64,000 nucleotides of DNA from Actinomycetota bacterium. Lineage in GTDB: Bacteria > Actinomycetota > Coriobacteriia > Anaerosomatales > D1FN1-002. The notes under the pieces were generated by a model that saw only the letters and a program-made list of their open reading frames with translations, did not search any database and was not told the DNA's origin. Positions 904-52,355 of the stretch are shown here, one piece after another. Each line of letters opens with the position of its first letter. Position 1 is the first letter of the stretch. The stretch is taken from the NCBI GenBank assembly GCA_037445995.1, contig JBBIJK010000006.1, positions 3,629 to 67,628 of the forward strand. Direction: 5' to 3'. The translations under genes were made by a program, and so were the position numbers.

Positions 904-3900
904 CTATCCGCCGAGCAGGACGACTCTGACCCTGCGCGTCCCGCCGTCCGTCTCCAGGGGCACTCTGGGTTCGGGGAGGCGGACGCCGTCGAGTTCCACG
1001 TACGCGACGCCCCGGTTGACCCCTCGGGGGTTCTCCACCTCGACCTCGTAGAGGGTCCGTTCGTTGCGGTATCGCATCGAGTAGCCGCTCCAGGTCTTGG
1101 GGATGCACGGGTCGACCACCATGTGGCGTCGCCCGCCCTCGGAGACGACGTCCAGTCCCAGGAGGTGCCTCACGATCACGTGGTGATACCAGGAGGCCGA
1201 CCCGGTGTACCAGGTCCAGCCCCCCCTTCCCACGTGCGGCTCGACGGCGTAGACGTCCGCCGCCACGACGTAGGGCTCCACCTTGTACCTGTCGACGTCC
1301 TCGGGCGTGAGTGAGTGGTTCACCGGGTTGATGAGGTCGAGCAGGGAGTGAGCTTCGTCTCCGTCCCCCATCATCAGGTGTGCGAGAGCCACCCAGACGG
1401 CTGCATGGGTGTACTGGCCGCCGTTCTCGCGTACGCCGGGCACGTACCCCTTGATGTACCCGGGGTCCTGCTCCATGCGGTCGAAGGGCGGGGTCAGCAG
1501 CATGACTACCCCGTCGTCCCATCTGACCAGGCGCTGCTCCACGGCATCGAGGGCCCTCATCGCGCGCGCGGAGTCGCCCGAACCCGAGATCACCGCCCAC
1601 GCCTGAGCGATGGCGTCTATGCGGCACTCCTCGGCCGACTTGCTCCCCAGAGGGGTTCCGTCATCGAAGTACGCGCGGCGGTACCACGAGCCGTCCCAGG
1701 CTTCTCGCTCCGCCGCCGCCACGACCTTTGCCGCGAACGCCCTCCATGAGGCCGCCCGCTCGGCGTCGTCCCGCTCCTGGGCGACTGTCGCGAACCGCCC
1801 GAGGACGACATCGAGGAACCACGCCATCCAGACGCTCTCGCCTTGTCCGCCCAGTCCGACGCGGTTCATGCCGTCGTTCCAGTCACCACCGCCCATCAGC
1901 GGCAGTCCGTGGGGGCCGGTGCCCAGCGACGCTTCGATGGCGGCGACACAGTGACCGTAGACCGACGCCTGCCGCTCTGAGCAAGAGGGCTGGATGTAGG
2001 CGTCTTCCGCGCCTTCTTCCAGTGCCGGACCTTCGAGGAATGCGACGGTCTCATCCAGGACCGTCGAGTCTCCGGTCGCGCGCAGGTACTCAGCGACGAT
2101 CAGGGGCAGCCAGAGCCGGTCGTCCGTGAAGCGGGTGCGCACCCCGCGCCCGCTGACCGGCTGCCACCAGTGGAGGACGTCACCTTCGGGGAACTGCCGT
2201 CGCGAGGCTTCCACGATGTGGTCTCTCACGAGGTCGGGACGGACCGCGAGCAGCGCGAGGCAGTCCTGCAGCTGGTCTCGGAATCCAAAGGCGCCCGACG
2301 ACTGGTACGTCGCCGTTCGGCCCCAGAACCGGCAGGACAGAGCCTGGTAGAGCAGGTGCGAGTTGACCAGCGCATCCATCGCCGGGTCAGGCGTCGAGAC
2401 CTGGATGGCGTCCAGGTCCCGCTCCCAGGCGTCCTTCGCGGCATCGAGCGCGCTGGAGATCGCGCCTGGCTCGCGAAGGGAGCTGACGAGGTCCCGAGCG
2501 AGATCGAGGATCGTCGTCTGACCGAGCAGGAAGCTGACCTCCGACGTCTGACCCGGACCGATCTCAACGGGCACCATGAGCGCCCCGCAGTTGTCGTGAT
2601 AGCGCCCGGTCGTCCCGCACAGCGAGGCGGCGCGCATGGCTGCGGGAGACGCGGGGTCGCCGTTCCTCCCGAGGAACTCCGTGCGGCTGGCCGTGTATGA
2701 GTGCAGCGGCTTGTCGCATGCGAGGAAAGCGCTCCTCCCGGGGAAGTCGTCGTTGAAGTGATTGTGCGCGGTCAGCATCGCGGCCCCGGGGTCCCACCAC
2801 GTGACCACCTGCTGGTTGGCCCGGCTGCGCGACGAGCCCAGGACCCACTCGACCATGTGCGTCACGGTCAGGCGGCGGGACCGCTCCGAGAGGTTGGTGA
2901 GCCGAAGGCGCGCGATCCGGACGGGCTCATCGGGCGGGACGAACCAGGTGAGTTCGTGCGCGATGCCTCTGGTGGTGTGCTCGAACACCGAGTAACCCCG
3001 GCCATGCCTGACGACATAGGGGTCCTCGTCGCGAACGGGGAGCGGTGTGGGCGACCATAACTCCCCAGTGTCCTCGTCCCGCACGTAGGTCAGCTCGCCC
3101 GACCCGTCCGACACGGGGTCGTTGTTCCACGTGGTGATGCGGTTCTCGTGGCTGTTCTCCGCCCAGGTGGTGCCGATCCCCGCCTCGGAGACCATGGTCC
3201 CGAAACGCGGCCTTCCGATCACGTTCACCCATGGGGCCGGAGTGGTGGCGTCGCCCTCCAGCACGACCACGTACTCTCTGCGGTCCAGGTCGTAGCCGCC
3301 AAGCCCGTTGTCGAACGCCAGTTCCGGCCTGTCGAACGGCGCCTTGGGGGCCCGCCTCGCGCGATCAGGCGGATCGGCGAGGGTAGTCAGCGCGGGCGCC
3401 GGCTCCGGCCGCCTGCCGCGTTGCCCGAGCTGCATCGCGATCGTGCCGCCATCACCCTCGATGGTGGCCCGCGCGACCGACACCAGCAGGTTCAGCACGT
3501 CGGGGTGCATCTGGTCGGCCCGGCGCAGGAAGACCCCGCCGGGCTTGTCCGCCAGCTGCAGCGCGTGGCCGGTACGGACAAGGAGCTTCAGGCGCTCGTC
3601 GAGATCGTCAGCGTATCCCGTGGGGCGCGTGTTCAGGACGACCAGGTCGGCGACGAGCCCCTTGTGCCGCCAGTACTGATGCGCCAGGAGGGCCTGCCTC
3701 ACCATGGGGGCGTCCTCCAGCCGGTCGATGCGGACCAGCAGGATGGGCAGGTCGCCGGAGATGCCGAGAGACCACAGCCCGTCCATCCGAAGCCCGTTCT
3801 CCACCGGCGTCTTGACCTTGAGCGGCGAGAACGGGTCCGTCAGAAGCAGGCGAGAGGCCAGCCGCTGGAAGACGACGGCTTCTTCGGAGGTGATCCCGAG

Positions 3901-6900
3901 GTCCCGCAGCTCTACCTGGCCGGCCGTCCATGCGAGGTCAGCCGCCCTTTGAGCGGCCGTGATGGAGGCGTACTTCTCGACAAGCGCCTCCGCTTCCTCG
4001 CGGGTGTCCGCGCCCCCGGTGGCGAACACGAGTCTCGTGGTCCCGCCCGGAGGCACCCTGACGGTCCCCCTGGACGCGCAGCATGGGTCTATCACGGCGC
4101 CCAGGGTGCCCGACAGGGACCCGGGGGCCGAGGCGAGGGCGGCGGGGTCGTGCACGCTTCGAAGCCGGCCGATGAATCGAGCGCGATCGGTCTCGCATGA
4201 CCAGTCGCAGCCGGTCTCCGGCTCGCACGCCAGGACGTGGAACCCCCATGGCCGGGCCTCCTCCGAGGACCGCGGACGCCGCGAGAACAGGACGGCCCGG
4301 CTGTCGGGGAGCGCCTCGGTCTCGACGAAGAGGTTCGAGAAGGCTCTGTGAGCCTGATCGGCGCCCTGTGGGGACAGGGCGATTTCGAAGTAGGAGGTGA
4401 CCTCGAGATGGCGGGTGTCGCGGCCGTGGTTCGTGAACGCGAGCCTCCGGACCTCCACGTCGTCCTCGGGAGAGACGATCACCTCGCAGCGGGTGTCGAT
4501 GTCACCGTCGCGGCGCCAGTATTCCGCCTTGTCCTCCGAGAAGGTGGCCCGGTACTCGTCGCCGGGGACCCGGAGCGGCTGGAAGGCGGCGGACCAGCGG
4601 TCTCCGGACGCGATGTCACGGACGTAGAGGAAGGTGCCCCAGCAGTCCCGCGTGACGTCCTCCCGGTACCGGGTGACGGCGAGACCCGCGCGACGCGAGT
4701 AGCCGCCCCCGGCGTTCGTCACCATGACCGAGTAGCTGCCGTTGGACAGGAAGTGCGTCGCGGGGGTGTAGGTGCCGGTGTCGGAGTACGAGCGGCCCGC
4801 GATTGCGGGGAGCTCTCGAACGGAACCCGCGAGCCGCACCTCCTCGACGTGGGGCGTCGTCAGTTGCGCGTGGCGGGGCACGCGTTCCTGCAGCAGCAGC
4901 TCGGCCGAGCGCACCATCGGGTCGGCGTGGAAGCGCTCTCTCATCCGGTACCCGGTGACCTCGTTGGCAAGGGCGACCATGCTCATCCCCTGGTGGTGGG
5001 CGAAGTACGCTCGCACGACGGCTCTCTTGGCGCCAGCGGGGATCCGGGCCGGGGTGTAGTCGATCGACTCGTAGAAGCCGTAGCGCCCCTCGCCTCCGCG
5101 GAGCCGCAAGGCGTCAAGGTTCGCGAGCGCCGCCTCGCGGTCTATCTGAAGAGCGAGGACGCTCGCGTAGGGCGCGATGACGACGTCGTCCGACAGTCCA
5201 CGCTTGAGCCCGAGTCCGGGGACCCCGAACGCCTGATACTGGTAGGTTAGGTTGACATCCTTGGCGTTGAAGGCGGATTCCGACACGCCCCAGGGCACGC
5301 CGCGTTGTCGGCCGTACTGGATCTGCCTCGCGACCACCGACGCGTACGTCCGGTCGAGCAGCGTGTCGGGCCATGTCCTCATCACCAGGAGCGGCATCAG
5401 GTACTCGAACATGGACGCGCTCCACGAGACTAGCGCGTGACCCGAGCCGGTGTCGGTGATGGAGCGGCCCAGCCGGAACCAGTGGTCCTGCGGAACGTCG
5501 CCCTTGGCGACCGCGAGGAAGCTCGCGAGGCGGCACTCCGAGGCCAGGATGTCGTAGTACGAGCCGTCGAGCCGACCCTCCGCGGTGTTGTATCCGATCG
5601 AGAAGAGGCGCCGGCTGGGGTCGTACAGCGGCCGGAAGTCGGTGTGCTCCCACATCTCGCGCGCGATGTCGCTCTGGAGCCGCATCTCGGCCAGGACGCT
5701 CGCGCACAGGGGGCGCTTGTCCCGGACACCGGCGGCCACGGCGGCGGCCCACACCGACGCCCGGCCGCATCCATCGTCCCCTTCGGCGTCTCGCGAGGCC
5801 AGCTCGTCTAAGGCGTCGAGAGCGCCGTCGAGCCCCTCGCCCAGCCCGACGATGGAGGGCGTGTGCTCGAGCAGCGGCTCGAGGTCCTCGTAGCGAGGGC
5901 AGGAGCGGACCCTGGCGGGGATGTCGGCGATCATCTCGGCCCAGGGCGCCATCTGCGAGAGGGTGCGCCCGGGCGCGCGCAGCGACTCCGAGACCATCCT
6001 CAAAGCCTCCGCCGCGATCCCGCCGTCCGCGAGGCGGGCTGTCAGTCCGTCGAGGTCCTCCGCGACCGACTCGAGCGACTCGAGCAGCACCCACCACTCA
6101 CCCAAGGTCGCCGGGGGCGGCTCGAGGGAGACGTGGCGTCGCACCTCCTCGAGGACCGCGGCGGCCTCTGTCGCGACTGCGGACCGCTCCGGCGGCGCCA
6201 GACCCGCGAGGTCTTCCAGCGCCAGGACGACCGTGTCGGAGATGCCGTCCACGAGTTGGGGGCCGAGCAGTGGGGCCTCGGAGGCCTCGAGCAGGCCGAC
6301 GCGGAGAACGAGAAGGTGTCCGGCCAGGTTCCCCGAGTCCACTGTGGAGACGTACGCGGGGCGGAGCGGTTCGAGGGTCAGGGTGTCGTACCAGTTGTAG
6401 AAGTGCCCCTCGTGGCGTTGCAGGCCGGCCAGCGAGTTGAGCGTCAGGCGCGTCCGCTCGAACGCCTCGGGTGCGGTGATGTACCCGAGGTCGTACGCGG
6501 AGAGGTAGCTGAGCAGCTGAAGGCCCACGTTGGTCGGCGACGTGCGGTGGGCCACCTCGCCCCCGGGGTCTTCCTGGAAGTTGTCGGGCGCCAGCCAGTG
6601 GTCCCGCTGCGTGACGAAGGTGTCGAAGAACCGCCAGGTGCGCCTCGCGATTCTGCGGATCTCGGCCGCCTGACACTCGTCGGGTCCGACGGTCCTGGGA
6701 GGCGTCGGGCGCGAGACCCACCAGGCCGCCCACGGCGCTGCGGCCCAGACCGCGGCGAACGCCGCCAGCACCGGGATGCGAGCCGCATCGAGGAACGCCG
6801 CCGGGACAAGGGCGGCCACGATCGCGAGCGAGGAGGGCGCGATCCGCCGGACCGAGCCCGCGAGCGAGGAGCCCAAGCGGCGCTCGGCGTCCGCGGCGGT

Positions 6901-9669
6901 CTCCCACTCGAGCAGCCCCCGCTTCGAGACCGTCATCCGCCACAGTGCGCGGCCGATGGCGTCCACGTGCAGCTGTGCCTGGTGGGGGAGCATGGCCAGG
7001 GTGAGGAGGGCCCTGGCCGAGTCTCGGCCGAAGTCCCGCCACGCGGTCCTCGCGGAGGTCGAGAAAGAGACGGATTTGGGCGGGAACAGCACCGAATCGG
7101 CCAGCGAGAAGTACGCGGGGAAGAAGACGGTCAGGAGCATGGCCAGCGCCCAGAGCCCTCCGCCGCCGGGCAGCAGGTACCATCCCGACACGGTCAGCAG
7201 CAGGACCGAGGGGGCGAACAGGCTCCTGCGGAGGTTGTCGACGATCTTCCACCGGTGAAGGCCGGAAAGCGGGTTGGCCTCCGTCCCGCTGGCGGTGGGG
7301 ACTCGTGGGGCCAACCACGGGGCAGTCTGCCAGTCACCTCGCACCCAGCGGTGCACCCGGGCCGCCTGGGCCGCATAGGTGGCCGGGTAGTCGTCGTAGA
7401 CCTCCACGTCGGACACGAGCGCCGTCCGGAGGTAGCAGCCCTCGAGCAGGTCGTGGGAGAGGAGCTGGTTGTCGGGCATGCGGTCTTCGAACACGGCGTC
7501 GAAGACGTCGACCTCGAAGATCCCCTTGCCGGTGAAGGACCCTTCGCCGAACACGTCCTGGTAGGTGTCCGACACCGCGCCCGCGTAGGGGTCGATGCCG
7601 GTGACCCCGGAGTACAGCCATGCGAACATCGAGCGGCCTGACGACGGCAGGGACATCCCCACCCTGGGTTGGACCAAGCCGTACCCGGCGGTCACCCGTC
7701 GCGCTCCGCGCTCCAGTCTGGCGCGGTTGAGGGGGTGCGCGATCGTCGAGACGAGCTTGGCCGCGCCGTCTCGCGGCAGGATCGTGTCCGCGTCCAGCGT
7801 GATCACGAACGTGACCAGAGGCTCGAACGACGTGTCCCCTTCCACATGCGAGAAGCTCGTCCCCTGCGAGCCCCGCAGACGCCTCGTTAGTTCGACAAGC
7901 GCCCCTCGTTTGCGCTCCCACCCCATCCATAGGCCTTCGCCGCTGGCGAACCGCCTTTCTCGCAGGTACAGAAGGAACGGGGTCGTCCCGTGCTCTCGCA
8001 GGTAGCGGTCGTTCAGCTCCGCTACGCCTCTTCGGGCGGCTTCCACGACCGGCGCGTCCCCCGGGACGCTCTCCTGCGGGGCCGACCGCAAGTCGCCCAG
8101 GAGCGCGAAGCGCAAGTTGGGGTCGGGGTTGGCCAGATAGGCGCGCTCGAGGTTGTCCACCACCGACTGGGCCGCCGGGGCCGAGGACAGGAGAGCGGGC
8201 ACGACCACGAGCGTGCGGTGGGTGTCGGCGATCGGCTTCCGGAAGTCGAGCTTGGGCAGGACGCGAGGCGGCCACAGCGAGGCGGCCAGCCGGTTGACGA
8301 TGTTGAGGGACAGGTCGCTCATGGGCACGATAGCGAGCGTCATCACTGCGGCGACCACGCCCAGAGAGGCGCCGGAGGCGGCGACGAGTCCGGCCAGCAG
8401 CGCCGCGAGCGCCAGAGTGTTGCCCGCCAGGATGCCCCAGTAGATCGCGCCCCTGTGCGAGAGGGGGCCGCGATACAGGTACTCGCGTGCGTGAGGGCGG
8501 TAGCCGACCGATCGCTCCAGCGAGTACCGCCCCTTCCCGATGAGGTAGCACCCGACGTGCGCTCCCACGGTGTCGGCGGCGTCACGCCTCAGGCCGTCGA
8601 GCGACCAGCTGATGACGGCTTCGGCGAGCTCGATCTCGCTCATCGGGCAGCGGCGGGCCATGCCCTCGAGCGCGTGGCGGTAGCGGTCCCGGCTCCGGAA
8701 GTCCATATGCTGGTACACGCCGGCGGGATCCTCGGACAGGATGTGTTCGACCAGGCAGCACCGCTCGAAGAACGTCTGCCAGTCCAGCGCTTCGAGGAAG
8801 CGTATCGCGGTGATGGAGTTGGCGACCGACACCTGGTCGGCCGCCTGCTCCTGCTGCTCGGCCCGGACCATCTCCTCGAAGGTTCGCCCGGTCCTCGTGA
8901 CCCTGCGACCGAGCCACGACGTCATCTCCGCCGTGACGTCCTCGCGGCCTTGGAGACGCTGGCCCAGCCGTCGGAGGAAGACCTGCTCGGCGTGGTGCCG
9001 CCGAGCGTCCAGCCGCGCGACCGCGGCGGCCGCGTCGTCTGCGCCAGCCCGGGCGGCGACGATGAGCTCGTCGGCCGCGTCGTCCGCCGCCGACTCCTCG
9101 ATCTGGGTCATCGCGACGCGATGTGCTATGCGCCGCACGTTCTCCACCAGTCCGATGCGCAGCATTATCGGCAGAGCCCACACTTCGCCGATCGAGAGGG
9201 GCGAGCCCTCCTGGAAGCCCATCACGTAGCGGACGAGGTGCTCTTCATCGAATCTGGAGTCGGTGTGGGTGAGCAGGTAGGTGACCGCCTCGAAGACGCG
9301 CGGGAATCCGGCGAGGTCCCCCGACAGGAGGCGTGGGAGCTCGATGCTGTAGTGCGCCGGCAGGTCGCGGCGAGCCGTGCGGATCTGCGTCTCCACAAGG
9401 TAGTGGTTGTCCAGCAGCCACTCGGCCGCCGGCGAGACGGCTCGTTGCTCGCGGGCCGCGGCGGCAAGCTGATCGTTGCACCAGGCCACGTGACTGGCGG
9501 CCTCGTCCAGCAGCTTGAGCAGCGGGTTGGCCGGCGCGAGGCCCTTGACCGTCCAGGCCTGGGTTCCCGCGAGGGCCTCCGCGGCCTTTGCCGCGGCCTC
9601 CGCTGACAGGATGTTCCCTCGCATGGGCGCGGGGACGTCTCCTGTGTATGGCGAGTAGGTTCCGGCCAT
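904..9669 (-). CDS. cyclic beta-1,2-glucan synthase-like giant glycosyltransferase/phosphorylase (NdvB/ChvB/Cgs architecture)
   Basis: Uninterrupted 2921-aa ORF. The N-terminal region contains AEWLLDNHYLVETQIR. A TM-flanked GT-A domain carries ITLDADT (DxD). The middle has an alpha-barrel region (DNFQEDPGGEVAHRTSPTNVG). The C-terminus is a GH94 phosphorylase-like region. Confidence 0.85.
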   Translation of the reverse strand: MAGTYSPYTGDVPAPMRGNILSAEAAAKAAEALAGTQAWTVKGLAPANPLLKLLDEAASHVAWCNDQLAAAAREQRAVSPAAEWLLDNHYLVETQIRTARRDLPAHYSIELPRLLSGDLAGFPRVFEAVTYLLTHTDSRFDEEHLVRYVMGFQEGSPLSIGEVWALPIMLRIGLVENVRRIAHRVAMTQIEESAADDAADELIVAARAGADDAAAAVARLDARRHHAEQVFLRRLGQRLQGREDVTAEMTSWLGRRVTRTGRTFEEMVRAEQQEQAADQVSVANSITAIRFLEALDWQTFFERCCLVEHILSEDPAGVYQHMDFRSRDRYRHALEGMARRCPMSEIELAEAVISWSLDGLRRDAADTVGAHVGCYLIGKGRYSLERSVGYRPHAREYLYRGPLSHRGAIYWGILAGNTLALAALLAGLVAASGASLGVVAAVMTLAIVPMSDLSLNIVNRLAASLWPPRVLPKLDFRKPIADTHRTLVVVPALLSSAPAAQSVVDNLERAYLANPDPNLRFALLGDLRSAPQESVPGDAPVVEAARRGVAELNDRYLREHGTTPFLLYLRERRFASGEGLWMGWERKRGALVELTRRLRGSQGTSFSHVEGDTSFEPLVTFVITLDADTILPRDGAAKLVSTIAHPLNRARLERGARRVTAGYGLVQPRVGMSLPSSGRSMFAWLYSGVTGIDPYAGAVSDTYQDVFGEGSFTGKGIFEVDVFDAVFEDRMPDNQLLSHDLLEGCYLRTALVSDVEVYDDYPATYAAQAARVHRWVRGDWQTAPWLAPRVPTASGTEANPLSGLHRWKIVDNLRRSLFAPSVLLLTVSGWYLLPGGGGLWALAMLLTVFFPAYFSLADSVLFPPKSVSFSTSARTAWRDFGRDSARALLTLAMLPHQAQLHVDAIGRALWRMTVSKRGLLEWETAADAERRLGSSLAGSVRRIAPSSLAIVAALVPAAFLDAARIPVLAAFAAVWAAAPWAAWWVSRPTPPRTVGPDECQAAEIRRIARRTWRFFDTFVTQRDHWLAPDNFQEDPGGEVAHRTSPTNVGLQLLSYLSAYDLGYITAPEAFERTRLTLNSLAGLQRHEGHFYNWYDTLTLEPLRPAYVSTVDSGNLAGHLLVLRVGLLEASEAPLLGPQLVDGISDTVVLALEDLAGLAPPERSAVATEAAAVLEEVRRHVSLEPPPATLGEWWVLLESLESVAEDLDGLTARLADGGIAAEALRMVSESLRAPGRTLSQMAPWAEMIADIPARVRSCPRYEDLEPLLEHTPSIVGLGEGLDGALDALDELASRDAEGDDGCGRASVWAAAVAAGVRDKRPLCASVLAEMRLQSDIAREMWEHTDFRPLYDPSRRLFSIGYNTAEGRLDGSYYDILASECRLASFLAVAKGDVPQDHWFRLGRSITDTGSGHALVSWSASMFEYLMPLLVMRTWPDTLLDRTYASVVARQIQYGRQRGVPWGVSESAFNAKDVNLTYQYQAFGVPGLGLKRGLSDDVVIAPYASVLALQIDREAALANLDALRLRGGEGRYGFYESIDYTPARIPAGAKRAVVRAYFAHHQGMSMVALANEVTGYRMRERFHADPMVRSAELLLQERVPRHAQLTTPHVEEVRLAGSVRELPAIAGRSYSDTGTYTPATHFLSNGSYSVMVTNAGGGYSRRAGLAVTRYREDVTRDCWGTFLYVRDIASGDRWSAAFQPLRVPGDEYRATFSEDKAEYWRRDGDIDTRCEVIVSPEDDVEVRRLAFTNHGRDTRHLEVTSYFEIALSPQGADQAHRAFSNLFVETEALPDSRAVLFSRRPRSSEEARPWGFHVLACEPETGCDWSCETDRARFIGRLRSVHDPAALASAPGSLSGTLGAVIDPCCASRGTVRVPPGGTTRLVFATGGADTREEAEALVEKYASITAAQRAADLAWTAGQVELRDLGITSEEAVVFQRLASRLLLTDPFSPLKVKTPVENGLRMDGLWSLGISGDLPILLVRIDRLEDAPMVRQALLAHQYWRHKGLVADLVVLNTRPTGYADDLDERLKLLVRTGHALQLADKPGGVFLRRADQMHPDVLNLLVSVARATIEGDGGTIAMQLGQRGRRPEPAPALTTLADPPDRARRAPKAPFDRPELAFDNGLGGYDLDRREYVVVLEGDATTPAPWVNVIGRPRFGTMVSEAGIGTTWAENSHENRITTWNNDPVSDGSGELTYVRDEDTGELWSPTPLPVRDEDPYVVRHGRGYSVFEHTTRGIAHELTWFVPPDEPVRIARLRLTNLSERSRRLTVTHMVEWVLGSSRSRANQQVVTWWDPGAAMLTAHNHFNDDFPGRSAFLACDKPLHSYTASRTEFLGRNGDPASPAAMRAASLCGTTGRYHDNCGALMVPVEIGPGQTSEVSFLLGQTTILDLARDLVSSLREPGAISSALDAAKDAWERDLDAIQVSTPDPAMDALVNSHLLYQALSCRFWGRTATYQSSGAFGFRDQLQDCLALLAVRPDLVRDHIVEASRRQFPEGDVLHWWQPVSGRGVRTRFTDDRLWLPLIVAEYLRATGDSTVLDETVAFLEGPALEEGAEDAYIQPSCSERQASVYGHCVAAIEASLGTGPHGLPLMGGGDWNDGMNRVGLGGQGESVWMAWFLDVVLGRFATVAQERDDAERAASWRAFAAKVVAAAEREAWDGSWYRRAYFDDGTPLGSKSAEECRIDAIAQAWAVISGSGDSARAMRALDAVEQRLVRWDDGVVMLLTPPFDRMEQDPGYIKGYVPGVRENGGQYTHAAVWVALAHLMMGDGDEAHSLLDLINPVNHSLTPEDVDRYKVEPYVVAADVYAVEPHVGRGGWTWYTGSASWYHHVIVRHLLGLDVVSEGGRRHMVVDPCIPKTWSGYSMRYRNERTLYEVEVENPRGVNRGVAYVELDGVRLPEPRVPLETDGGTRRVRVVLLGG

Positions 9670-9846
9670 GCCGCCCGTCCGCTCGTAGCGCGACCCCGCG
9701 CCCGGAGGTCCCCCGTGCCGGGGCGCCCTCTCCCGCAGGTGCTATTCTCGCACGGTTCCCGACTCGCGCAGCCGCGCGCGGCACGGCGTTTGCGGGGCGG
9801 ATGCCTGTAGGGGCATTCTTTCCGGCTCGAGACATCGGAGGGCGAA

Positions 9847-10551
9847 GTGGCATCCAGAAGGTGGATGATCTGGGCGGCAATCGCCGTGGCCGTGGCGGGG
9901 GTGGGCTATCTCGTGTCCCGGCCCGCAGGCCCGCAAGGCGGTGTCGTCTCGGGCGATGAGCTCGCGAGCCTGTTCGCCGGTGGTGCGCGAGTCATCGACG
10001 TGAGGACCCCCATCGAGTACGAGGGTGGCCACATCCCCGGGGCCGAGAACGTCCCGGTCGACCAGCTTCCCGGGGCGGCGGGGGTCTGGGACCGCGAGGT
10101 GCCGATCGCCGTGTACTGCCTGTCGGGTGAACGCTCCGCCAACGCGGCGGGCTACCTCACGGCGCAGGGGTTCACGAGGGTCTACGACCTGGGCGGTGGC
10201 ATCGGTTCGTGGAAGGGCGATCTTGTGACCGGCGCCCAGGCGGGCGATCGCCCCGGAGCCATCGCCACCTCCGGCAGGCCCCGGATGATCGAGTTCAGCT
10301 CAGACACTTGACCCGCCTGCGTCGAGATGAAGCCTGTGGTCGACAGGCTGAAGCAGGAGTATGAGGGCAAGGTCGATTTCACCATCCACCTGGACGGCGC
10401 CGACGAGGAGGGCGAGAGGATCGCCGCGATGATCGGGGTCAGGTACGTCCCGACGTTCGTGTTCGTGAACTCTGACGGCTCCATCAAGGGGACGGACATA
10501 GGGGCGATCGGCGAGGCCAAGATGCGGCAGCGGCTCGATTCGTTGAAGTAG
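9847..10551 (+). CDS. membrane-anchored rhodanese / thioredoxin-like fusion protein; candidate selenoprotein (TGA 10309-10311 read as Sec)
   Basis: GTG start 5 nt after GGAGGG, then an N-terminal TM helix. The rhodanese domain has the active-site loop VYCLSGERS. ORFs 9847-10311 and 10327-10551 are in the same frame, separated only by a TGA. Read-through gives ...MIEFSSDT-U-PAC-VEMKPVVDRLKQEY...RYVPTFVFV..., a complete thioredoxin fold with UxxC. Confidence 0.6.
10316..10357 (+). promoter_or_regulatory. candidate bacterial SECIS hairpin
   Basis: Lower stem CCTGC (10316-10320) pairs with GCAGG (10353-10357). Upper stem AGCCTG (10331-10336) pairs with CAGGCT (10344-10349). The apical loop is UGGUCGA, and the loop lies 26-32 nt 3' of the UGA. 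Confidence 0.4.
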
Positions 10552-11019: not shown

Positions 11020-11095
11020 GGGGACGTAGCTCAGCTGGGAGAGCGCGGGCTTTGCAAGCCTGAGGTCGTCGGTTCGATCCCGATCGTCTCCACCA
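11020..11095 (+). tRNA. tRNA-Ala (anticodon UGC), CCA encoded
   Basis: 76-nt cloverleaf. The acceptor stem GGGGACG/CGTCTCC carries the G3:U70 alanine identity pair. The anticodon loop is TT-TGC-AA, the T-loop is GGTTCGATCC, and the 3' end is ACCA. Confidence 0.95.
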
Positions 11096-11295: not shown

Positions 11296-12546
11296 GTGCT
11301 GCTGGAGCGCTGGGCCACCAAGGCTGTGCTGGATGCGCTGGAGTGGGCTCCGGTCGTGCTCGTCGAGGGGCCACGTCAAGCAGGCAAGTCCGTGCTCGTC
11401 CGAGACCTGGTGGGACAGAAGCGGCCCGCGGACTACGTGACGCTCGACGACGCGGTGGTCCTGGCCGGCGCGCGGGAGGATCCGCAGGGGTTCGTGACCT
11501 TGCTGCCGGACCCCGTGATCGTCGATGAGGTGCAACGGGCGCCGGGGATCTTTCTGCCCATCAAGCTCGTGGTGGACGCGGACCGCCGCCCGGGGCGATT
11601 CATGCTCACGGGCTCGGCGAACGTGCTCCTCATGCCGAAGGTGTCGGACTCGCTCGCGGGGCGTATGCGGATCGTGACGCTTTGGCCGCTGTCGCAGGGC
11701 GAGATCGACGGCGAGCCGCCGGGGTTCGTCGAGGCGCTGTTCGATGCCGCTCCGCTGCCGCGGGTCGAGGGGACGCTGGACCGCATCGCGCTGGCCCGGC
11801 GGATCACGAGGGGCGGATTCCCGGAGGCGGTCTCGCTCCCCGAAGGAGCCCCTCGTGACGGCTGGATGCGCGACTACGCGACCACGCTCCTGGAACGGGA
11901 CGTGCGCGACCTGGCCGCCATCGGCGACCGGGTGGTGATGCCCAGGCTGCTGCGCATCCTCGCGGCGCGCAGCGGGACCCTCCTCAACGTGTCGGACCTC
12001 AGCCGGGCCACCGGGATCGCCCGGGCCACGCTGGACCGCTACCTCGCCGTGCTGAACCGGACGTTCGTCGTGCGGCTGATCCCGGCGTGGTCGGGCGACG
12101 TGGCGCGTCGCCTGATCAAGGCGCCCAAGGTGCTCGTCGCGGACTCCGGGCTGGCGGCCCACCTCGTCGGACTGGACGCCGAACGGCTCCTCTCTGACCC
12201 GGATCGGCTGGGCCCGTTGCTCGACACGTTCGTGGGCACCGAACTCCTGAAGCAGCTCGCCACCATCGGCTCCCGAGTCGAGTTGATGCACTTCAGGGAC
12301 AGCCGCGGGAACGAGGTGGACTGGGTGCTGGAGGACGCGACCGGACGCATCGTCGGCGTCGAGGTGAAGTCGACCGCGACACCGTCGCAGCGCGACTTCA
12401 AGGGACTGCGCGCGCTTGCCGCGAGCGTGGGCGAGCGCTTCTGCCGCGGTGTGCTGTTGCACGGCGGTACCGCCTCCGTGCCGATGGGCGAGGGCATGTG
12501 GGCGTTGCCGATCGAGGCGCTTTGGCGCACGAAAGTGGGGGCATGA
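11296..12546 (+). CDS. AAA-type ATPase with C-terminal DUF4143-like domain
   Basis: 416 aa with a GTG start after GAAGGGAG. The Walker A is GPRQAGKS and the Walker B-like segment is VIVDEVQ. Overall resemblance is to the widespread ATPase/DUF4143 family. Confidence 0.8.
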   Translation: MLLERWATKAVLDALEWAPVVLVEGPRQAGKSVLVRDLVGQKRPADYVTLDDAVVLAGAREDPQGFVTLLPDPVIVDEVQRAPGIFLPIKLVVDADRRPGRFMLTGSANVLLMPKVSDSLAGRMRIVTLWPLSQGEIDGEPPGFVEALFDAAPLPRVEGTLDRIALARRITRGGFPEAVSLPEGAPRDGWMRDYATTLLERDVRDLAAIGDRVVMPRLLRILAARSGTLLNVSDLSRATGIARATLDRYLAVLNRTFVVRLIPAWSGDVARRLIKAPKVLVADSGLAAHLVGLDAERLLSDPDRLGPLLDTFVGTELLKQLATIGSRVELMHFRDSRGNEVDWVLEDATGRIVGVEVKSTATPSQRDFKGLRALAASVGERFCRGVLLHGGTASVPMGEGMWALPIEALWRTKVGA

Positions 12547-22913: not shown

Positions 22914-23846
22914 ATGGGCAGCGGGGGTAAGGGAAGGACAGTGCATGCTCGGAATCCGGCGTCCGCGACAAGCCGTCCCGCGATGAGCGACGCAGAGGCC
23001 CCGCTGTTCCGTGTCGCCGCGGTCTGCGCCGACCTCGAGGAACCCGTCGACCGGGTGGTCTCGTTGGGGCGCGACGTCTATGAGCTCGGTGTGCGCGAGG
23101 TGGTCCTCGTGCACGTGGTGGACGCGTTCGGCGATCGGTCGCGCATCGGGCCTCCGGGCCCGGAGGCGGATCGGGCCTTCTCGGACCAGATCGCCGCTCT
23201 GGAATCGCTTGGCTTGAAGGTCCGGGTCGACGTCCCGGTCGGTCACGTTTCCTACTCCCTCGAGGATGTCTCCGATCGATTCGGGGCGGATTTGGTGGCC
23301 GTCAGCGGCCGGGGGCTGGACGCACTCGGGTCGGCTTCGGATCGTGCCGTCTCCTCGGACATCGCCCGGGTGAGCACCAGGCCGGTTCTCGCGAGCGTGG
23401 GGCGACGGCGGGAGGGCTCCATCCTGGACAGGGTGCTCTTCCCGACAGACTTCTCGGAGGCCGCGACCACCGCTCGCGGCTGTCTGGAGCAGTCGATGCG
23501 ATGGGGCTCTCGGAGCGTGCACCTTCTGCACGTCCAGGACATCGCGAGGCTCGGTACGGCTCCGGGGATCCTTCGCGAGTACGACACCACCGACACGCTT
23601 CGCCTCGAAAAGCGAAGGCAGCGCCTTCTCGACCTCGGCGCGCGGGAGGTCACGACGTCGATAGTCCACGGAGACCCTGCCGCCGAGGTCGCCATGGCGG
23701 CGGCCTCAGGGGGCTACTCGCTCGTCATGATGGGAAGCCGCGGGCGTTCGCAGACCACCGACAGGTTCCTCGGCGCTGTGAGCGCCGGGGTAGTGGCGAG
23801 GGCCGCGTGCCCGGTCCTCTTGGCGTCGCCGCGGTCCGAAGGCTGA
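22914..23846 (+). CDS. tandem universal stress protein (UspA family)
   Basis: Two USP-like halves are present. The C-terminal signature is LVMMGSRGRSQTTDRFLGAVSAGVVARAACPVLL. The start is uncertain (22914, 22941 GTG or 22983). Confidence 0.8.
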   Translation: MGSGGKGRTVHARNPASATSRPAMSDAEAPLFRVAAVCADLEEPVDRVVSLGRDVYELGVREVVLVHVVDAFGDRSRIGPPGPEADRAFSDQIAALESLGLKVRVDVPVGHVSYSLEDVSDRFGADLVAVSGRGLDALGSASDRAVSSDIARVSTRPVLASVGRRREGSILDRVLFPTDFSEAATTARGCLEQSMRWGSRSVHLLHVQDIARLGTAPGILREYDTTDTLRLEKRRQRLLDLGAREVTTSIVHGDPAAEVAMAAASGGYSLVMMGSRGRSQTTDRFLGAVSAGVVARAACPVLLASPRSEG

Positions 23847-23880
23847 GCCCGGCTACGTCCTCAGTGGTTCGCGAGGATGG

Positions 23881-24060
23881 TCAGTCCTCGACAAGTTCGG
23901 CGGCTGGGGTCACCAGATGGCACAGCCAGCACGGGCCGGGCGGGTGCCGCTCCGGGACCGGCTGTTCGGGATGCACGGGGCGCACGATCACGTGCGCCAC
24001 CGCGAGTATCACCGCCGCGAACAGTGCGATCGACGCCGCTGCTTTCAGGACCTGCCTCAT
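23881..24060 (-). CDS. 59-aa putative single-pass membrane peptide (below ORF-track cutoff)
   Basis: An ATG...TGA ORF encoding MRQVLKAAASIALFAAVILAVAHVIVRPVHPEQPVPERHPPGPCWLCHLVTPAAELVED. It has one hydrophobic helix and lies in the gap between the usp gene and the metalloprotease gene. Confidence 0.25.
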   Translation of the reverse strand: MRQVLKAAASIALFAAVILAVAHVIVRPVHPEQPVPERHPPGPCWLCHLVTPAAELVED

Positions 24061-24143
24061 CGCCCGCGCCTTTCTCGCGGCGGCACGCGTTTCGCTGGCC
24101 GCTCGATGGTGTGCTCAGACGCCCGCGTGCCGATAATACAGGG

Positions 24144-26918
24144 GTGAGATTGCCCGGACGCCACAGATCGTCGGGGAGCCGGGCCGCCTTGGTCGCGGCC
24201 ATGTTTGCGTTCGCGCTCTCGCTGCCCACCGTCGCACGCGGTCTGTCCGTGGAGATGTCGCTCGAGGACCGCGTGCTCGCCGCGCACACGGTCGTGCTCG
24301 CCGACATCGTGTCGTCGCGCGTTCGCACCGGAGGTTCGTCGCGGGGGCCTGCGATCGAGACGGTCGTGGAGCTGTCGACGATCTCGGCGTTGAAGGGCAA
24401 GCCGCCGCGCCGCATCCCGGTGGTGTTGCCAGGCGGCGCGACCGACGACCTCGTCGTCTGGTCGCCCGACACCCCCGCCTTCGTGGTCGGCCGTCGGGCG
24501 CTCGTCTTCCTCGATGCGGGCGGACGGGTGATCGGGGGCACGGACGGGCGCCTGGATGTGGCCTCCGGGATGGTCGCCGTTGAGCGGCAGTCCTGGGCGC
24601 ACGTTCGCGACCGGGTGCTCGTCGCGGCGGGCAGGCTGGAGGGCCCGGTGCTCTCGGCGCCCGCCAGCGGCGTGTCGGCCGCTTCCGTGTCGGTGGCCGG
24701 GGTCCCCGTGATATCCGGGATCACGCCCGGCAGCGCATCTGCCGGCACCCGCAGCAGGGTGACCGTCTCGGGATCGGGTTTCGGGGTGTCCAGGGGGTCG
24801 GGCAAGGTCAGTTTCTTCTACCGTGACGGCCGTGACCCCATACAGGCCGCGAGGTATGTGAGCTGGAGCGACACCGCCATCACCGTCGAGGTGCCGACGG
24901 CCACCGTCAACGGGTACCAGGCCGCGGCGGGCAGCGGGCCGGTCACGGTGACCGACTCCTCTGGCCGGACTTCGCCGGGACACGACTTCGTAGTGACTTT
25001 CGCCTTCGGGGGGGTGAAGTGGGCGGGGACCTCCATGACCTACCGCGTCGCCGCTCCGAGTGCTTCGTTCGAGACCATGGTGGACGCCGCGGCTTCGACA
25101 TGGAGCGCCGTGTCAGCTTTCCGCATGCACGACGGCGGGCCGATAGCGGCCCCGACGGCTTCCACCAACGACGTCTACTGGGACGCTTTGGCCACCGGCG
25201 ACCTCGGCCGGGCATACATCAGCTACATGCCAGGGACCGCCACCGGCACGATCGTCTCTTGCGACATCGCGCTCAACACCGCCCATCCTTGGGGTGACGG
25301 CACGGGTGACACCTTCGACGTGCAGTCAGTGGTTCTCCACGAACTCGGTCACTGGCTCAACCTGCGAGACCTGTACGGCGCGGGCGACGTCGCCGAGGTC
25401 ATGTACGGAATCGGCACGCGGGGCTCACGCAAGCGCGAGCTCCACGCCCACGATATCGCGGGCATCCGCTACATCTACGGATCCTCGGATTCGCATACGC
25501 CGACGAGCAGCGTCAGCGGCGTCCCGTCAGGCTGGACCTCGCAGACGGTCGTAGCGTCCATCTCCGCTGCCGACGACAGCTCAGGGGTGCGGCGAACCTA
25601 CTACAGGGTGGGGTCGGGACCCGCGTACATCTACTCCGGCCCCGTGTCGTTTTCGACGGACCAGGACACGACGCTCTGGTACTGGTCGGAGGACAACGCC
25701 GGGAACGTCGAAACAGCGCGTTCGGCGGCCATCCGGGTGGACAAGTCGCCACCGGTGACGTCGGCCGACGTCAGGACCTTCTACGCCGACGCCGCCACCA
25801 TCACGTTGTCCGCCGCCGACGGCGGGTCGGGGGTCGCCTCGACGGCCTGGAGGCTCAACGGGGCCGAGTGGCGGGCGGGGGCCGTCGCGGGCGCCGCCTC
25901 GCTTGGGACGCACACGCTGGAGTACCGGTCGACCGACGCCGTCGGCAACCGGGAGTCCGCCAGGACCGCCACCTTCACGGTCGTCGCCGGCCAGACGACC
26001 GATGTCGAGCGCTTGGCGGGTGCGGACAGGTACCTCACCGCGGTCAAGGTGTCGGAGAGCTCCTTCGCCACGGCGGCGGCCGTGGTGCTGGCGACGGGGC
26101 AAGGGTTTCCTGATGCCCTGGCCGCGGCGGGACTGGCCGGCGCGCTCCGGGCCCCGGTGATGCTCGCGCGCCCTGACGAGGTTCCCGCGGAGGTGGTGGC
26201 CGAGGTTCGCCGGCTCGGCGCGTCGCGAATCGTGGCCGTCGGCGGGGCTCGCGCGGTGTCTGATCGCGCGCTCGAACGGGCCGCCGCCGGAGCGGGAGTC
26301 AGATGGAGCCGCGTCTGGGGCGCGGATCGGTACGGGACGGCTGCCGCGGTCGCGGCCGAGATCGTCCGGCTGCGCGGCGCGGTGCCGGTGGTGTTCCTCG
26401 TTCGCGGCGATGGCTTCGCGGACGCCCTTGCGGCCTCACCGTACGCCTACTCCCAGCGCGCCCCGATCCTGCTGACCCGCATGGACGGTGCGCCGGAGGT
26501 CACTGTGGCTGCGGCGCGCGGCTCCGGAGCGTCCGAGGTGGTGGTTGCCGGAGGTCCCGCCGTGCTGTCCGACGCGGCGGTGACGGGGCTGGGTCTTCCC
26601 TGGACGCGGGTCCACGGCTCCAACCGGTACGCCACGGCCGTGGCGCTGACGAGGCACGCGATGTCTCGCGGGTGGACGACGCCGACCTCCGTGGGGGTCG
26701 CCACCGGCGAGCGCTTCCCCGACGCGTTGTCGGGCGGCGCGGCGATGGGGTCGGTCGGGGGGGCCTTGCTGCTCACCAGGAGCGCCCACCTGACCGAGGA
26801 GTCGTCGACGTTCCTGGTCGACTGCATGCCGGCGATCCGCTTCATACGGGTGCTGGGTGCTGAAGCGGCCGTCTCGCCACACTGCTTCGCGGTTCTCTCG
26901 GCGCTTGGCGCGCCCTAG
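24144..26918 (+). CDS. secreted cell-wall-associated metzincin metalloprotease (IPT/TIG + HExxH + Ig-like + 3x CWB2 repeats)
   Basis: The GTG start gives the signal peptide RLPGRHRSSGSRAALVAAMFAFALSLPTVARG. An IPT-like segment (PVISGITPGSASAG) follows. The zinc site is HELGHWLNLRD with an Asp third ligand as in snapalysin, plus the Met-turn VMYG. Three CWB2-like repeats are present (RLAGADRY..., RVWGADRY..., RVHGSNRY...). Confidence 0.8.
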   Translation: MRLPGRHRSSGSRAALVAAMFAFALSLPTVARGLSVEMSLEDRVLAAHTVVLADIVSSRVRTGGSSRGPAIETVVELSTISALKGKPPRRIPVVLPGGATDDLVVWSPDTPAFVVGRRALVFLDAGGRVIGGTDGRLDVASGMVAVERQSWAHVRDRVLVAAGRLEGPVLSAPASGVSAASVSVAGVPVISGITPGSASAGTRSRVTVSGSGFGVSRGSGKVSFFYRDGRDPIQAARYVSWSDTAITVEVPTATVNGYQAAAGSGPVTVTDSSGRTSPGHDFVVTFAFGGVKWAGTSMTYRVAAPSASFETMVDAAASTWSAVSAFRMHDGGPIAAPTASTNDVYWDALATGDLGRAYISYMPGTATGTIVSCDIALNTAHPWGDGTGDTFDVQSVVLHELGHWLNLRDLYGAGDVAEVMYGIGTRGSRKRELHAHDIAGIRYIYGSSDSHTPTSSVSGVPSGWTSQTVVASISAADDSSGVRRTYYRVGSGPAYIYSGPVSFSTDQDTTLWYWSEDNAGNVETARSAAIRVDKSPPVTSADVRTFYADAATITLSAADGGSGVASTAWRLNGAEWRAGAVAGAASLGTHTLEYRSTDAVGNRESARTATFTVVAGQTTDVERLAGADRYLTAVKVSESSFATAAAVVLATGQGFPDALAAAGLAGALRAPVMLARPDEVPAEVVAEVRRLGASRIVAVGGARAVSDRALERAAAGAGVRWSRVWGADRYGTAAAVAAEIVRLRGAVPVVFLVRGDGFADALAASPYAYSQRAPILLTRMDGAPEVTVAAARGSGASEVVVAGGPAVLSDAAVTGLGLPWTRVHGSNRYATAVALTRHAMSRGWTTPTSVGVATGERFPDALSGGAAMGSVGGALLLTRSAHLTEESSTFLVDCMPAIRFIRVLGAEAAVSPHCFAVLSALGAP

Positions 26919-27406
26919 CGGGACTCCTCCACGGTCAAGGTCACGCTCACGACCGCGCCCGCGCGGTGGCGCTCAACAGTCACGAGACCCTGTTCGGCTT
27001 GCCCGCCCTTGGTGAACGTGAACGATCCGCCGCCCTCGCCGAGGTCGCCGAGCAGCCCGCCGACCACGTAGCCCGCGCCCTCCAGGGCCCCCCTGTACCA
27101 GGCCAGCGCTGACGGCGCGCTCATGCCTACCTTGAGCGCGAAGGTGAACGACGAACCCTCCTCGACCTCGCCTCCCGTCCACCCAAGGAGCTCGCTTTGG
27201 GGAAGAGGGAACCCCGTCGGGAGGTCCGAGGGAAGCAGCGACCGGACCGTCGAGTCAGGGCGAGCGGAGCCGCCCGCATCGGGCGCGGCCGTTGTGGCGG
27301 CGGCGGGATCCGGCGGATTGCTCTGCAGGGTCTCCGGCGCCGCGGGTCGGCAGCCGGAGACCAGGCACAGCATCACCGTCGCGAACAGGAGCGCCCTTGT
27401 GGCCAT
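26915..27406 (-). CDS. lipoprotein, function unknown
   Basis: 163 aa with an ATG after GGGAGGGAG. The signal peptide has the lipobox LVSGC. The 316-aa ORF-track version is an upstream extension antisense to acyP. Confidence 0.6.
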   Translation of the reverse strand: MATRALLFATVMLCLVSGCRPAAPETLQSNPPDPAAATTAAPDAGGSARPDSTVRSLLPSDLPTGFPLPQSELLGWTGGEVEEGSSFTFALKVGMSAPSALAWYRGALEGAGYVVGGLLGDLGEGGGSFTFTKGGQAEQGLVTVERHRAGAVVSVTLTVEESR

Positions 27407-27479
27407 CCCCGCCGTCTCCCTCCCGCGACGAGTCTTCGGAGGGAACATACACCTTTTCAACGGCGGAGCAGGGAGGCGC

Positions 27480-27773
27480 ATGGAGGGCGGAGCGTCGGTC
27501 TCCCTCGCAAGGGCGAGGGTCTTGGTCGGCGGCGTCGTACAGGGAGTGTTCTTTCGCGCGTCGACCGTCGAGGCGGCCGAGACCATGGGCGTCTCGGGAT
27601 GGGTGCGAAACCTGTCCGACGGGCGGGTCGAGGCCGTGTTCGAGGGTCCTTGCGAGCGCGTGGAGCAGGCGGTCGCGTGGGCGCGCAACGGCCCGGCGCG
27701 GGCCGTCGTGGAGCGGTTCGAGGTCGAATGGGGTGAGCCGGAGGGGCTCAGGGGGTTCGTCGTGCGGAGGTGA
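27480..27773 (+). CDS. acyP: acylphosphatase
   Basis: 97 aa with the signatures VGGVVQGVFFR and GWVRNLSDGRVE. The RBS is GGAGCAGGGAGG. Confidence 0.9.
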   Translation: MEGGASVSLARARVLVGGVVQGVFFRASTVEAAETMGVSGWVRNLSDGRVEAVFEGPCERVEQAVAWARNGPARAVVERFEVEWGEPEGLRGFVVRR

Positions 27774-27899
27774 TGCGCCGCCCAGACCGGTCGGCGTCCA
27801 TCCCACTCTCGCAGCGCCCGCGTCGAGCGAACTTCGGGCGATGCCATGACCGCGAGTGATACCATCGGAGCCTGTCAAAGCCGACCGAGCGGAGCCGCA

Positions 27900-44884: not shown

Positions 44885-44983
44885 GGCTTGCCCCCTGCCC
44901 GCGCTCCGGTCATCGGTGTCCAGCATACTACGGCTTGGGTCGTCGACCCTCTCCGCGCCCCGTCGCAGCGATATCATCTGCTT

Positions 44984-48416: not shown

Positions 48417-48443
48417 CACACCGATACGAGAGGAAACACTGAC

Positions 48444-48977: not shown

Positions 48978-48978
48978 G

Positions 48979-49566: not shown

Positions 49567-49575
49567 GAGAATGAC

Positions 49576-52335: not shown

Positions 52336-52355
52336 CGCCGAACGGAGGGATAGTG

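Follow-up and report, generated by a model that had tools for sequence, protein, structure and literature searches.

The 64,000-nucleotide stretch of DNA analysed here (the window; contig JBBIJK010000006.1 of assembly GCA_037445995.1, from an Actinomycetota bacterium) contains, at positions 10309-10311, a TGA that separates an open reading frame (ORF) called as a rhodanese from a short orphan ORF in the same frame, which raises the question of whether this codon ends a gene or encodes selenocysteine (Sec) within one. Comparative analysis of the locus indicates that the TGA is almost certainly a real Sec codon, and that region 9847-10551 very likely gives one Sec-containing product, with a bacterial selenocysteine insertion sequence (SECIS) at 10331-10349. 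The family to which it belongs is large, unannotated, derived from uncultured Coriobacteriia-like bacteria, and split in two by gene callers.

A single reading frame across the TGA

The elements from which the gene is read are all encoded on the plus strand.

9837-9842, plus strand: Shine-Dalgarno-like GGAGGG, 4 nt before the GTG start, read from the sequence
9847-10311, plus strand: upstream ORF, with start codon GTG and stop codon TGA at 10309-10311
10327-10551, plus strand: downstream ORF, sharing the frame of 9847-10311 (480 nt apart)
9847-10551, plus strand: complete proposed selenoprotein gene of 234 codons, with UGA as Sec codon 155, followed by TAG
10309-10311, plus strand: UGA read as the Sec codon (U155), on the basis of the family-wide TGA, Cys in rare relatives and the WCGPC alignment

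The original prediction had described two same-frame ORFs parted by a single TGA, and all of its sequence claims hold. In the read-through frame from 9847 the next stop after TGA 10309-10311 is the TAG at 10549-10551, and the resulting product has 234 residues (...GRPRMIEFSSDT-[TGA]-PAC-VEMKPVVDRLKQEYEGKVDFTIHLD...VRYVPTFVFVNSDGS...). All gene callers divide this locus in two, annotating a 'rhodanese' of 154 residues and an orphan ORF of 74 residues. Transcription of the gene is apparently monocistronic. Scanning the window in six frames identified TGA 10309-10311 as the sole clean in-frame TGA with coding-like composition on both sides, the other matches lying in antisense frames or at gene ends, and since this was the only clean case, the site is considered to be beyond chance. 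No other selenoprotein genes were found in the window.

Conservation of the TGA column

The identical gene, including the TGA, was present in two NCBI metagenome-assembled genomes (MAGs; GCA_964592805.1 and GCA_037440705.1) and in two independent Logan assemblies, from different sequencing runs. Dozens of homologues, 150-175 residues long, were obtained in a protein search, and all stop at the same aligned column; this shared end directly precedes the Cys of P0005, the one full-length relative (..YEFYTDW-C-PSC..). In seven further species (Coriobacteriia or Actinomycetota MAGs, including the closed 2.67 Mb chromosome OY968780.1), inspection of the DNA showed TGA at this column, after which P-[SAT]-C and 79-81 codons of thioredoxin domain continue in frame. 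Metagenome loci were retrieved with peptide patterns from the thioredoxin domain only, which leave the TGA column unconstrained, and TGA was found at the column in 79 of the 79 loci examined, always with P-x-C and the 79-81-codon domain in frame after it, and with the rhodanese CxxGxRS loop upstream in frame wherever the contig was long enough. An assembly error, which had been put forward as a possible origin of the TGA, is therefore excluded by its identity in four independent assemblies and by the TGA at the same column in seven other genomes and all of these metagenome loci.

When the Cys form was used as the seed of another protein search, approximately 65 additional truncated forms were obtained and just two further close Cys forms (P0134 and P0184, the latter lacking the rhodanese); altogether, 110 protein clusters in the databases end at the TGA column. 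The Cys codon is TGC in P0005 (..YTDWCPSC..) and P0134 (..YTLVCPSC..) and TGT in P0184. TGA is carried by more than 95% of the members of the family, and Sec is used in preference to Cys at roughly 30 to 1. As anticipated in the original prediction, the TGA column is that of a redox Cys, both in P0005 and P0134 and in solved thioredoxins in the PDB, where it aligns with the first Cys of WCGPC (phmmer).

If the TGA were a true stop, the locus would encode a 154-residue anchored rhodanese and a separately initiated 74-residue thioredoxin fragment, or would represent a decaying pseudogene. The annotation made by the gene callers agrees with such a stop, and the ATG at 10327 is kept in most relatives. 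The pattern of substitution, however, is that of a translated region downstream of the TGA as well as upstream of it: codon-position entropy (positions 1/2/3) was 1.09/0.92/1.35 upstream and 0.94/0.78/1.13 downstream (79 codon columns, 76 sequences), with the order position 3 > 1 > 2, the coding pattern, on both sides. Immediately after the TGA, the Pro bases C4 and C5 and the Cys bases T10 and G11 are invariant while third positions vary, such that Pro and Cys persist, with synonymous variation, in the five-codon stretch (P-x-C-x-x) that leads from the TGA to the internal ATG. The Met at the internal 'start' is a residue ordinarily found in the CxxC helix of thioredoxins (C-K-M) and is replaced by Val (GTC) in locus L160 and by Leu (CTG) in locus L102. 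Given the synonymous conservation of Pro and Cys and these replacements of Met, separate initiation of the downstream ORF is unsupported, and no comparable Shine-Dalgarno motif was seen on inspection of the sequence ahead of ATG 10327. The frame and spacing are kept, and no second stop occurs, in 86 other loci, while a fragment beginning at M161 would lose strand beta-1 and both redox residues. A true stop is on this evidence extremely improbable.

A SECIS hairpin within the coding sequence

10331-10349, plus strand: bacterial SECIS hairpin with a 7-bp stem, starting 19 nt after the UGA and located inside the coding sequence
10331-10337, plus strand: 5' arm of the SECIS, AGCCUGU
10338-10342, plus strand: SECIS loop, GGUCG
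10343-10349, plus strand: 3' arm of the SECIS, ACAGGCU

Across 79 distinct sequences, 96.6% of the pair cells of this hairpin form standard pairs, compared to 23-49% in slid-register controls. Pairing is maintained by different bases: pair 27-37 is U-A in 48 sequences, C-G in 27, U-G in 2 and G-C in 1, and pair 28-36 is G-C in 59, C-G in 18 and U-A in 2. Cells with a double change numbered 48 vs 14.6 +/- 2.7 in shuffled data, the observed value being reached in none of 500 shuffles. This compensation spans codons, the third base of a Pro codon covarying with the first base of an Arg/Gly codon and, in a second case, Val/Leu covarying with Asp/Glu. Third-codon-position entropy is 0.44 bits within the hairpin vs 0.98 outside it. 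The loop tetranucleotide GGUC is that of the E. coli fdhF SECIS, as extracted from the K-12 genome; in Rfam there was no family match at the gathering threshold, nor at E <= 10 around the hairpin.

The state of the hairpin in the three Cys forms was as follows.

L168 (P0005): codon TGC; hairpin intact, which would fit a recent change
L169 (P0134): codon TGC; stem mismatched, loop altered
L171 (P0184): codon TGT; stem mismatched, loop altered

The hairpin is thus broken in two of the three (L169 and L171), and because both of these still have the peptide KPVVD, the RNA constraint vanishes along with Sec.

In the proposed recoding, the hairpin at 10331-10349 would recruit SelB carrying Sec-tRNA(Sec). 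Alternatively, it might stimulate decoding of the UGA by a near-cognate Cys- or Trp-tRNA, giving a Cys or Trp product without selenium. UGA followed by C, as found here, is a leaky stop context, and the fact that no Sec machinery was detected in the window or the searched 20-kb flanks of relatives would also fit this explanation. Yet Cys could be had at full efficiency through one TGA-to-TGC change, while more than 95% of the family retain TGA; the spacing, size and GGUC loop of the hairpin match a SelB-binding SECIS; and selB and tRNA-Sec are generally present in relatives within the class (PMC13462651). Selenium-free read-through is accordingly judged highly improbable.

Sec machinery and genetic code

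The window was searched for Sec machinery with Pfam (about 40 window ORFs) and ARAGORN, the latter detecting a tRNA-Ala only. Two genes with AIRS domains, at 56785-59064 and 61714-62772, were considered as selD and rejected, being purL and purM of a pur operon. Across 1.7 Mb of loci, tblastn with E. coli SelA, SelB and SelD together with ARAGORN detected no sel genes outside unrelated loci from Chloroflexota and Desulfovibrio. Within Coriobacteriia, Sec is a common trait, since most other Eggerthellaceae, a family of this class, carry tRNA-Sec and selB (PMC13462651).

Regarding the genetic code, UGA has been reassigned to Trp in a clade of Eggerthellaceae with 31-40% GC, small genomes and no UGA stops (PMC13462651), and in the relative P0186 (L170) the codon at the UGA column was translated as Trp by the Joint Genome Institute (JGI). 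Were UGA to encode Trp genome-wide (genetic code 4), position 155 would be Trp. The DNA of the P0186 locus, however, has TGA with an intact SECIS hairpin, and the GC content of the window is 69%, against that of the reassigned clade. TGA is an ordinary stop in the window, ending approximately 22 of the 38 supported genes (e.g., purC, purQ, purL, purF, and purM), no other supported gene is interrupted by TGA, and a gene of 2921 codons is free of it, leaving a single in-frame TGA in coding context within 64 kb. In relatives the column is Cys, the catalytic nucleophile of CxxC. Reassignment to Trp can be regarded as next to impossible.

Domain architecture and topology

The read-through product was scanned against Pfam with U replaced by C, and the fold was assessed on an AlphaFold2 (AF2) model of the Cys homologue P0005 and not on the window protein itself.

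9862-9918, plus strand: N-terminal transmembrane signal-anchor, residues 6-24, predicted N-in/C-out
9955-10218, plus strand: single rhodanese domain, residues 37-124 (Pfam PF00581, 64 bits vs a cut-off of 22.2, E = 1.9e-17)
10117-10137, plus strand: rhodanese active-site loop C91-L-S-G-E-R-S97, in which the catalytic residue is Cys, not Sec
10222-10281, plus strand: Gly/Ala/Pro-rich flexible linker, residues 126-145, of variable length (gaps in alignment A1)
10282-10548, plus strand: thioredoxin-fold domain, residues 146-234, order b-a-b-a-b-b-a
10309-10320, plus strand: redox motif U155-P-A-C158, with the family pattern U-P-[SAT]-C, aligning to C-G-P-C
10450-10452, plus strand: codon of the thioredoxin cis-proline (P202 in V-P-T), 'vryvPTfvf' vs thioredoxin 'irgiPTlml'

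The original prediction read the structure as a membrane-anchored, Cys-type rhodanese (CLSGERS) joined to a thioredoxin fold with cis-Pro, the TGA occupying the position of the N-terminal redox Cys (UxxC), and these matches bear it out. The PDB matches of the rhodanese domain are rhodanese domains, GlpE, PspE and YgaP. Within alignment A1 of homologues, C91, G94, R96 and S97 are invariant, and over the 110 family clusters the loop takes the forms CATGSRS, CATGARS and CLSGERS. The stretch equivalent to the linker in the P0005 model has a predicted local distance difference test score (pLDDT) down to 58-79.

The thioredoxin domain matches Pfam Thioredoxin (PF00085) over residues 139-229 with 37.9 bits, the cut-off being 23.5, and no match to the AhpC-TSA or Redoxin profiles of Pfam was obtained for it. 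The P0005 model (pLDDT 91.4; predicted template modelling score, pTM, 0.59) shows the b-a-b-a-b-b-a order of a thioredoxin fold, and with Foldseek it was matched to classical thioredoxins at a root-mean-square deviation of 1.4 A over 90 columns and a target template modelling score (TM-score) of 0.76-0.81. The Pro at this position of V-P-T or I-P-T is established as the cis-Pro of thioredoxin.

Regarding topology, the best 19-mer at the N-terminus has a mean hydropathy of 2.67 over the 110 clusters, and the net positive charge is greater on the N-side than on the C-side of the anchor in 109 of the 110, in line with the positive-inside rule and an N-in orientation; the P0005 model has a helix at residues 3-25. 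An N-in/C-out anchor would place the rhodanese and thioredoxin domains outside the cytoplasmic membrane, and from the sequence both domains are likely to face outward in what would be a Gram-positive, Coriobacteriia-like anaerobe. Related modules with a Sec-containing thioredoxin domain (Trx(U)) also have export signals, that of L170 being a lipoprotein signal and that of a paralogue on L005 a cleavable signal peptide. Export by the twin-arginine (Tat) route was considered and rejected, the SRRW motif of the window protein not being conserved in the family.

Comparison with known selenoproteins and related proteins

The 2026 and 2022 inventories of prokaryotic selenoproteins list thioredoxin (PF00085, UxxC) and other UxxC thioredoxin-fold families (PMC13188914, PMC9312934), and UxxC thioredoxin-fold selenoproteins are the commonest predicted kind in bacteria (PMC13188914). 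The five rhodanese forms of these inventories either have Sec within the rhodanese domain or correspond to TsoB, a rhodanese/DsbD fusion with UxxxxU (PMC13188914, PMC9312934). A fusion of an anchored Cys-type rhodanese with a Sec-containing thioredoxin is absent from both inventories (PMC13188914, PMC9312934), and no NCBIfam model reaches its cut-off with the window protein. Neither the recoding mechanism nor the position of Sec departs from the canonical, and the domain-and-motif scheme of the inventory authors would file the protein under 'Trx, UxxC'; what distinguishes it is its architecture, a probable outward location and a marked preference for Sec rather than Cys.

The thioredoxin selenoprotein of the Treponema denticola type likewise has a classical fold, Sec in place of the N-terminal Cys of CxxC, and a UGA with a SECIS inside the ORF (PMC13188914, PMC9312934). 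It is free-standing, however, while the domain encoded in the window is an anchored, probably extracytoplasmic C-terminal module fused to a Cys-type rhodanese, and the dipeptide of its redox motif is G-P, compared to P-[SAT] in the window family. TsoB (NF045694; 'rhodanese form 5', PMC13188914) is likewise a membrane-associated selenoprotein combining a rhodanese with a thiol-disulfide redox module, but has approximately 570 residues, a DsbD transmembrane core and two Sec in UxxxxU, whereas the window protein has one transmembrane helix and UxxC; against NF045694 the window protein scored 26.4 bits vs a cut-off of 805 and is not a member, through a weak local thioredoxin match at profile positions 472-548 of 572. 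Rhodanese selenoprotein forms 1-4 (PF00581/NF041203; PMC13188914) share the presence of a rhodanese domain in a bacterial selenoprotein, but have Sec in the rhodanese itself (UxxS, UxxG, CxU), unlike the window protein with its Cys-type rhodanese and its Sec in the fused thioredoxin.

Of the Cys proteins, E. coli GlpE and PspE have the same fold and six-residue Cys loop as the window rhodanese, and PspE is also located outside the cytoplasm; the discharge of the PspE persulfide by dithiols (PMC2593051) is the chemistry proposed for the window protein. GlpE and PspE are separate proteins with Cys only, whereas the acceptor in the window protein is covalently tethered and Sec-based. CcmG/DsbE, ResA and TlpA have an N-terminal anchor, an outward thioredoxin fold with a W-C-P-x-C-like motif, and electron supply of the CcdA/DsbD type. 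The motif of E. coli CcmG is WCPTC. The window protein differs from this group by matching classical thioredoxins, lacking a context of cytochrome c maturation, and having the rhodanese and Sec in addition. Three Cys-type metagenome fusions (P0058, P0060, and P0185) have the same order of export signal, rhodanese and thioredoxin, with W-C-x-P-C; these uncharacterised proteins share 27-36% identity with the window protein and differ from it in having Cys and a cleavable signal peptide.

Rhodanese-less relatives were also detected. L170 232-642 (P0186) encodes a lipoprotein signal and a thioredoxin domain, with TGA and an intact SECIS, and L171 1183-1611 (P0184) encodes an anchor and a thioredoxin domain, with TGT (Cys) and a decayed hairpin. 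Chromosome OY968780.1 has a second selenoprotein gene with a thioredoxin fold (L005 13751-14491, minus strand, TGA at 14347-14345), 3.8 kb from the main gene, encoding a signal peptide (..LAPATTSA) followed by ..RPRMYEFSIN-[TGA]-LNC-GAIKPVVDGL... Its SECIS, AGCCCGU GGUCG ACGGGCU, begins 19 nt after the UGA, the same as the main element, and its product has approximately 110 extra C-terminal residues of unassigned fold; this gene was found in no other locus examined. Chloroflexota loci near selB or tRNA-Sec (L044, L068 and others) were set aside as encoding unrelated Cys-type multi-rhodanese repeat proteins. In these, a tRNA-Sec (L068 9534-9627, minus strand) and a selB (L044 19059-20207, minus strand) lie near secreted multi-rhodanese-repeat proteins (CASGHR), a proximity that may be coincidental.

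Proposed function

It is known that rhodanese persulfides are discharged by dithiols to give sulfide and a disulfide, and that PspE is a periplasmic rhodanese (PMC2593051). A passage of PMC2593051 cites Ray et al. (2000) for an interaction between GlpE and thioredoxin, and interactions with thioredoxins have also been described for plant sulfurtransferases (PMC4618214). Because dithiols discharge rhodanese persulfides and these sulfurtransferases interact with thioredoxins, a four-step relay of sulfane sulfur is proposed, in which the protein would act as a self-contained sulfurtransferase:(seleno)thioredoxin couple. C91 would take sulfane sulfur from thiosulfate, polysulfide or a persulfide; the tethered selenolate of U155 would attack the C91 persulfide; C158 would resolve the adduct, with sulfide being released and a U155-C158 selenenylsulfide left; and a CcdA/DsbD-type membrane electron shuttle, or small thiols, would re-reduce the selenenylsulfide. 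If selenium were scarce, termination at the UGA would give the 154-residue anchored rhodanese. This relay is put forward tentatively as the likeliest mechanism, its chance of being correct being somewhat below even.

Another role would be that of a Sec-thioredoxin servicing the rhodanese Cys or exported proteins (sulfenic acids, mixed disulfides, isomerisation) with no turnover of sulfane sulfur. An outward-facing, anchored thioredoxin fold with C/U-P-x-C resembles reductases of the CcmG/ResA type, and Trx(U) modules exist without a rhodanese (L170 and the L005 paralogue); persulfide and oxidised forms of PspE are relevant in the oxidising periplasm (PMC2593051; cf. the interplay of PspE and DsbC in E. 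coli). The invariance of the rhodanese and its Cys loop in the 110 clusters, on the other hand, suggests a catalytic partner and not a passive client, and the thioredoxin domain matches classical thioredoxins and not the TlpA, ResA or DsbA types, which makes such thiol service rather unlikely.

A role in selenium or metal(loid) chemistry at the cell surface may also be considered, with the rhodanese forming a perselenide and the Sec-thioredoxin reducing selenite or tellurite, or producing metal-precipitating sulfide. Thioredoxin is involved in the first step of selenite reduction (PMC8538045), a passage of PMC9369223 discusses rhodanese as a selenium carrier, and metal precipitation was once considered for PspE, although that hypothesis was unsupported in E. 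coli (PMC2593051). No selenium, arsenic or tellurium genes are adjacent to the window gene and the copper cluster of the window is 37 kb away, so that this role is distinctly unlikely. More speculatively, and with low probability, the family might be nearly obligate in its dependence on selenium and act at the outward side of the membrane of Gram-positive anaerobes, the rhodanese capturing sulfane sulfur or selenium from outside the cell and the tethered selenothioredoxin reducing it. Such a surface persulfide/polysulfide reductase, or selenium-capture device, would be without a described counterpart and might be tied functionally to the neighbouring GH94 gene.

Taken as a whole, the probable explanation of region 9847-10551 is one gene encoding a 234-residue, membrane-anchored rhodanese-thioredoxin selenoprotein. 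Several observations weigh against it. The window and the 20-kb flanks at L005-L011, the loci of the seven related genomes, yielded no selA, selB, selD or tRNA-Sec, and analysis of the neighbouring genes revealed no redox partner or sulfur-metabolism gene in the operon. The topology is read solely from the charge bias and the function solely from the domain content, while the pTM of 0.59 for the P0005 model leaves the meeting of the two domains undefined. The rhodanese is nearest to single-domain sulfurtransferases of the GlpE and PspE type, yet against the GlpE and PspE equivalogs (NF001195, NF007627) the protein scored 50.9 and 37 bits, respectively, below the cut-off of 102.

The proposed rhodanese-thioredoxin selenoprotein family affects annotation, in that more than 100 sequence clusters are at present called as two ORFs, one named 'rhodanese' or 'phage shock protein E' and the other an orphan of 74 residues, and, in one case, the codon was rendered as Trp; these calls are put right once the family is recognised. 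Coriobacteriia also gain a selenoprotein family in one of their poorly studied and largely uncultured branches. As a natural fusion of a sulfurtransferase and a proposed thioredoxin-type acceptor, the protein makes the long-discussed rhodanese-thioredoxin couple testable in a single polypeptide, and the excess of Sec over Cys forms provides a built-in comparison for what selenium contributes. If this is an outward-facing selenoenzyme, selenium availability would be relevant to the surface sulfur chemistry of Gram-positive anaerobes.

Genomic neighbourhood and other features of the window

Upstream of the selenoprotein gene and divergent from it, a gene at 904-9669 (minus strand) encodes a 2921-residue protein with Glycoamylase, GH94 beta-supersandwich and GH94 domains, which is interpreted from its domain architecture as cyclic beta-1,2-glucan-synthase-like. 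This giant GH94 gene is located beside the selenoprotein gene in 25 of 30 related loci, at a protein identity of only 40-50%. The NCBIfam model 'rhoda_near_glyco' matched the selenoprotein far below threshold (40.7 bits vs 145). On the other side, tRNA-Ala(UGC) at 11020-11095 (plus strand) is found downstream of the selenoprotein gene in every related locus; many relatives have a convergent amtB-glnB pair between the gene and this tRNA, which the window lacks, and in the window an AAA_14/DUF4143 ATPase (11296-12546, plus strand) directly follows the tRNA.

A copper-handling-like cluster at 47106-52826 (plus strand) encodes a P-type ATPase with HMA domains, two further cupredoxin-like proteins and a DUF7282 protein. 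It also includes, at 47106-48416, a DsbD_2 (CcdA-like) membrane protein fused to a cupredoxin, which could in principle serve as an electron source for exported thioredoxin-like proteins; nothing links it to the selenoprotein gene. A region of approximately 4 kb (23846-27846) had no clear coding ORF by a filter on GC content at third and second codon positions (GC3/GC2), and no Rfam match. At 44414-46582, long ORFs overlap on opposite strands and both are supported by Pfam: an NfeD-like ORF (44414-45706, minus strand), whose domain is near the C-terminus only, and a RACo-like activator (44660-46582, plus strand) with Fer2, middle and ASKHA domains. ORF 44414-45706 is probably far longer than the true NfeD gene.

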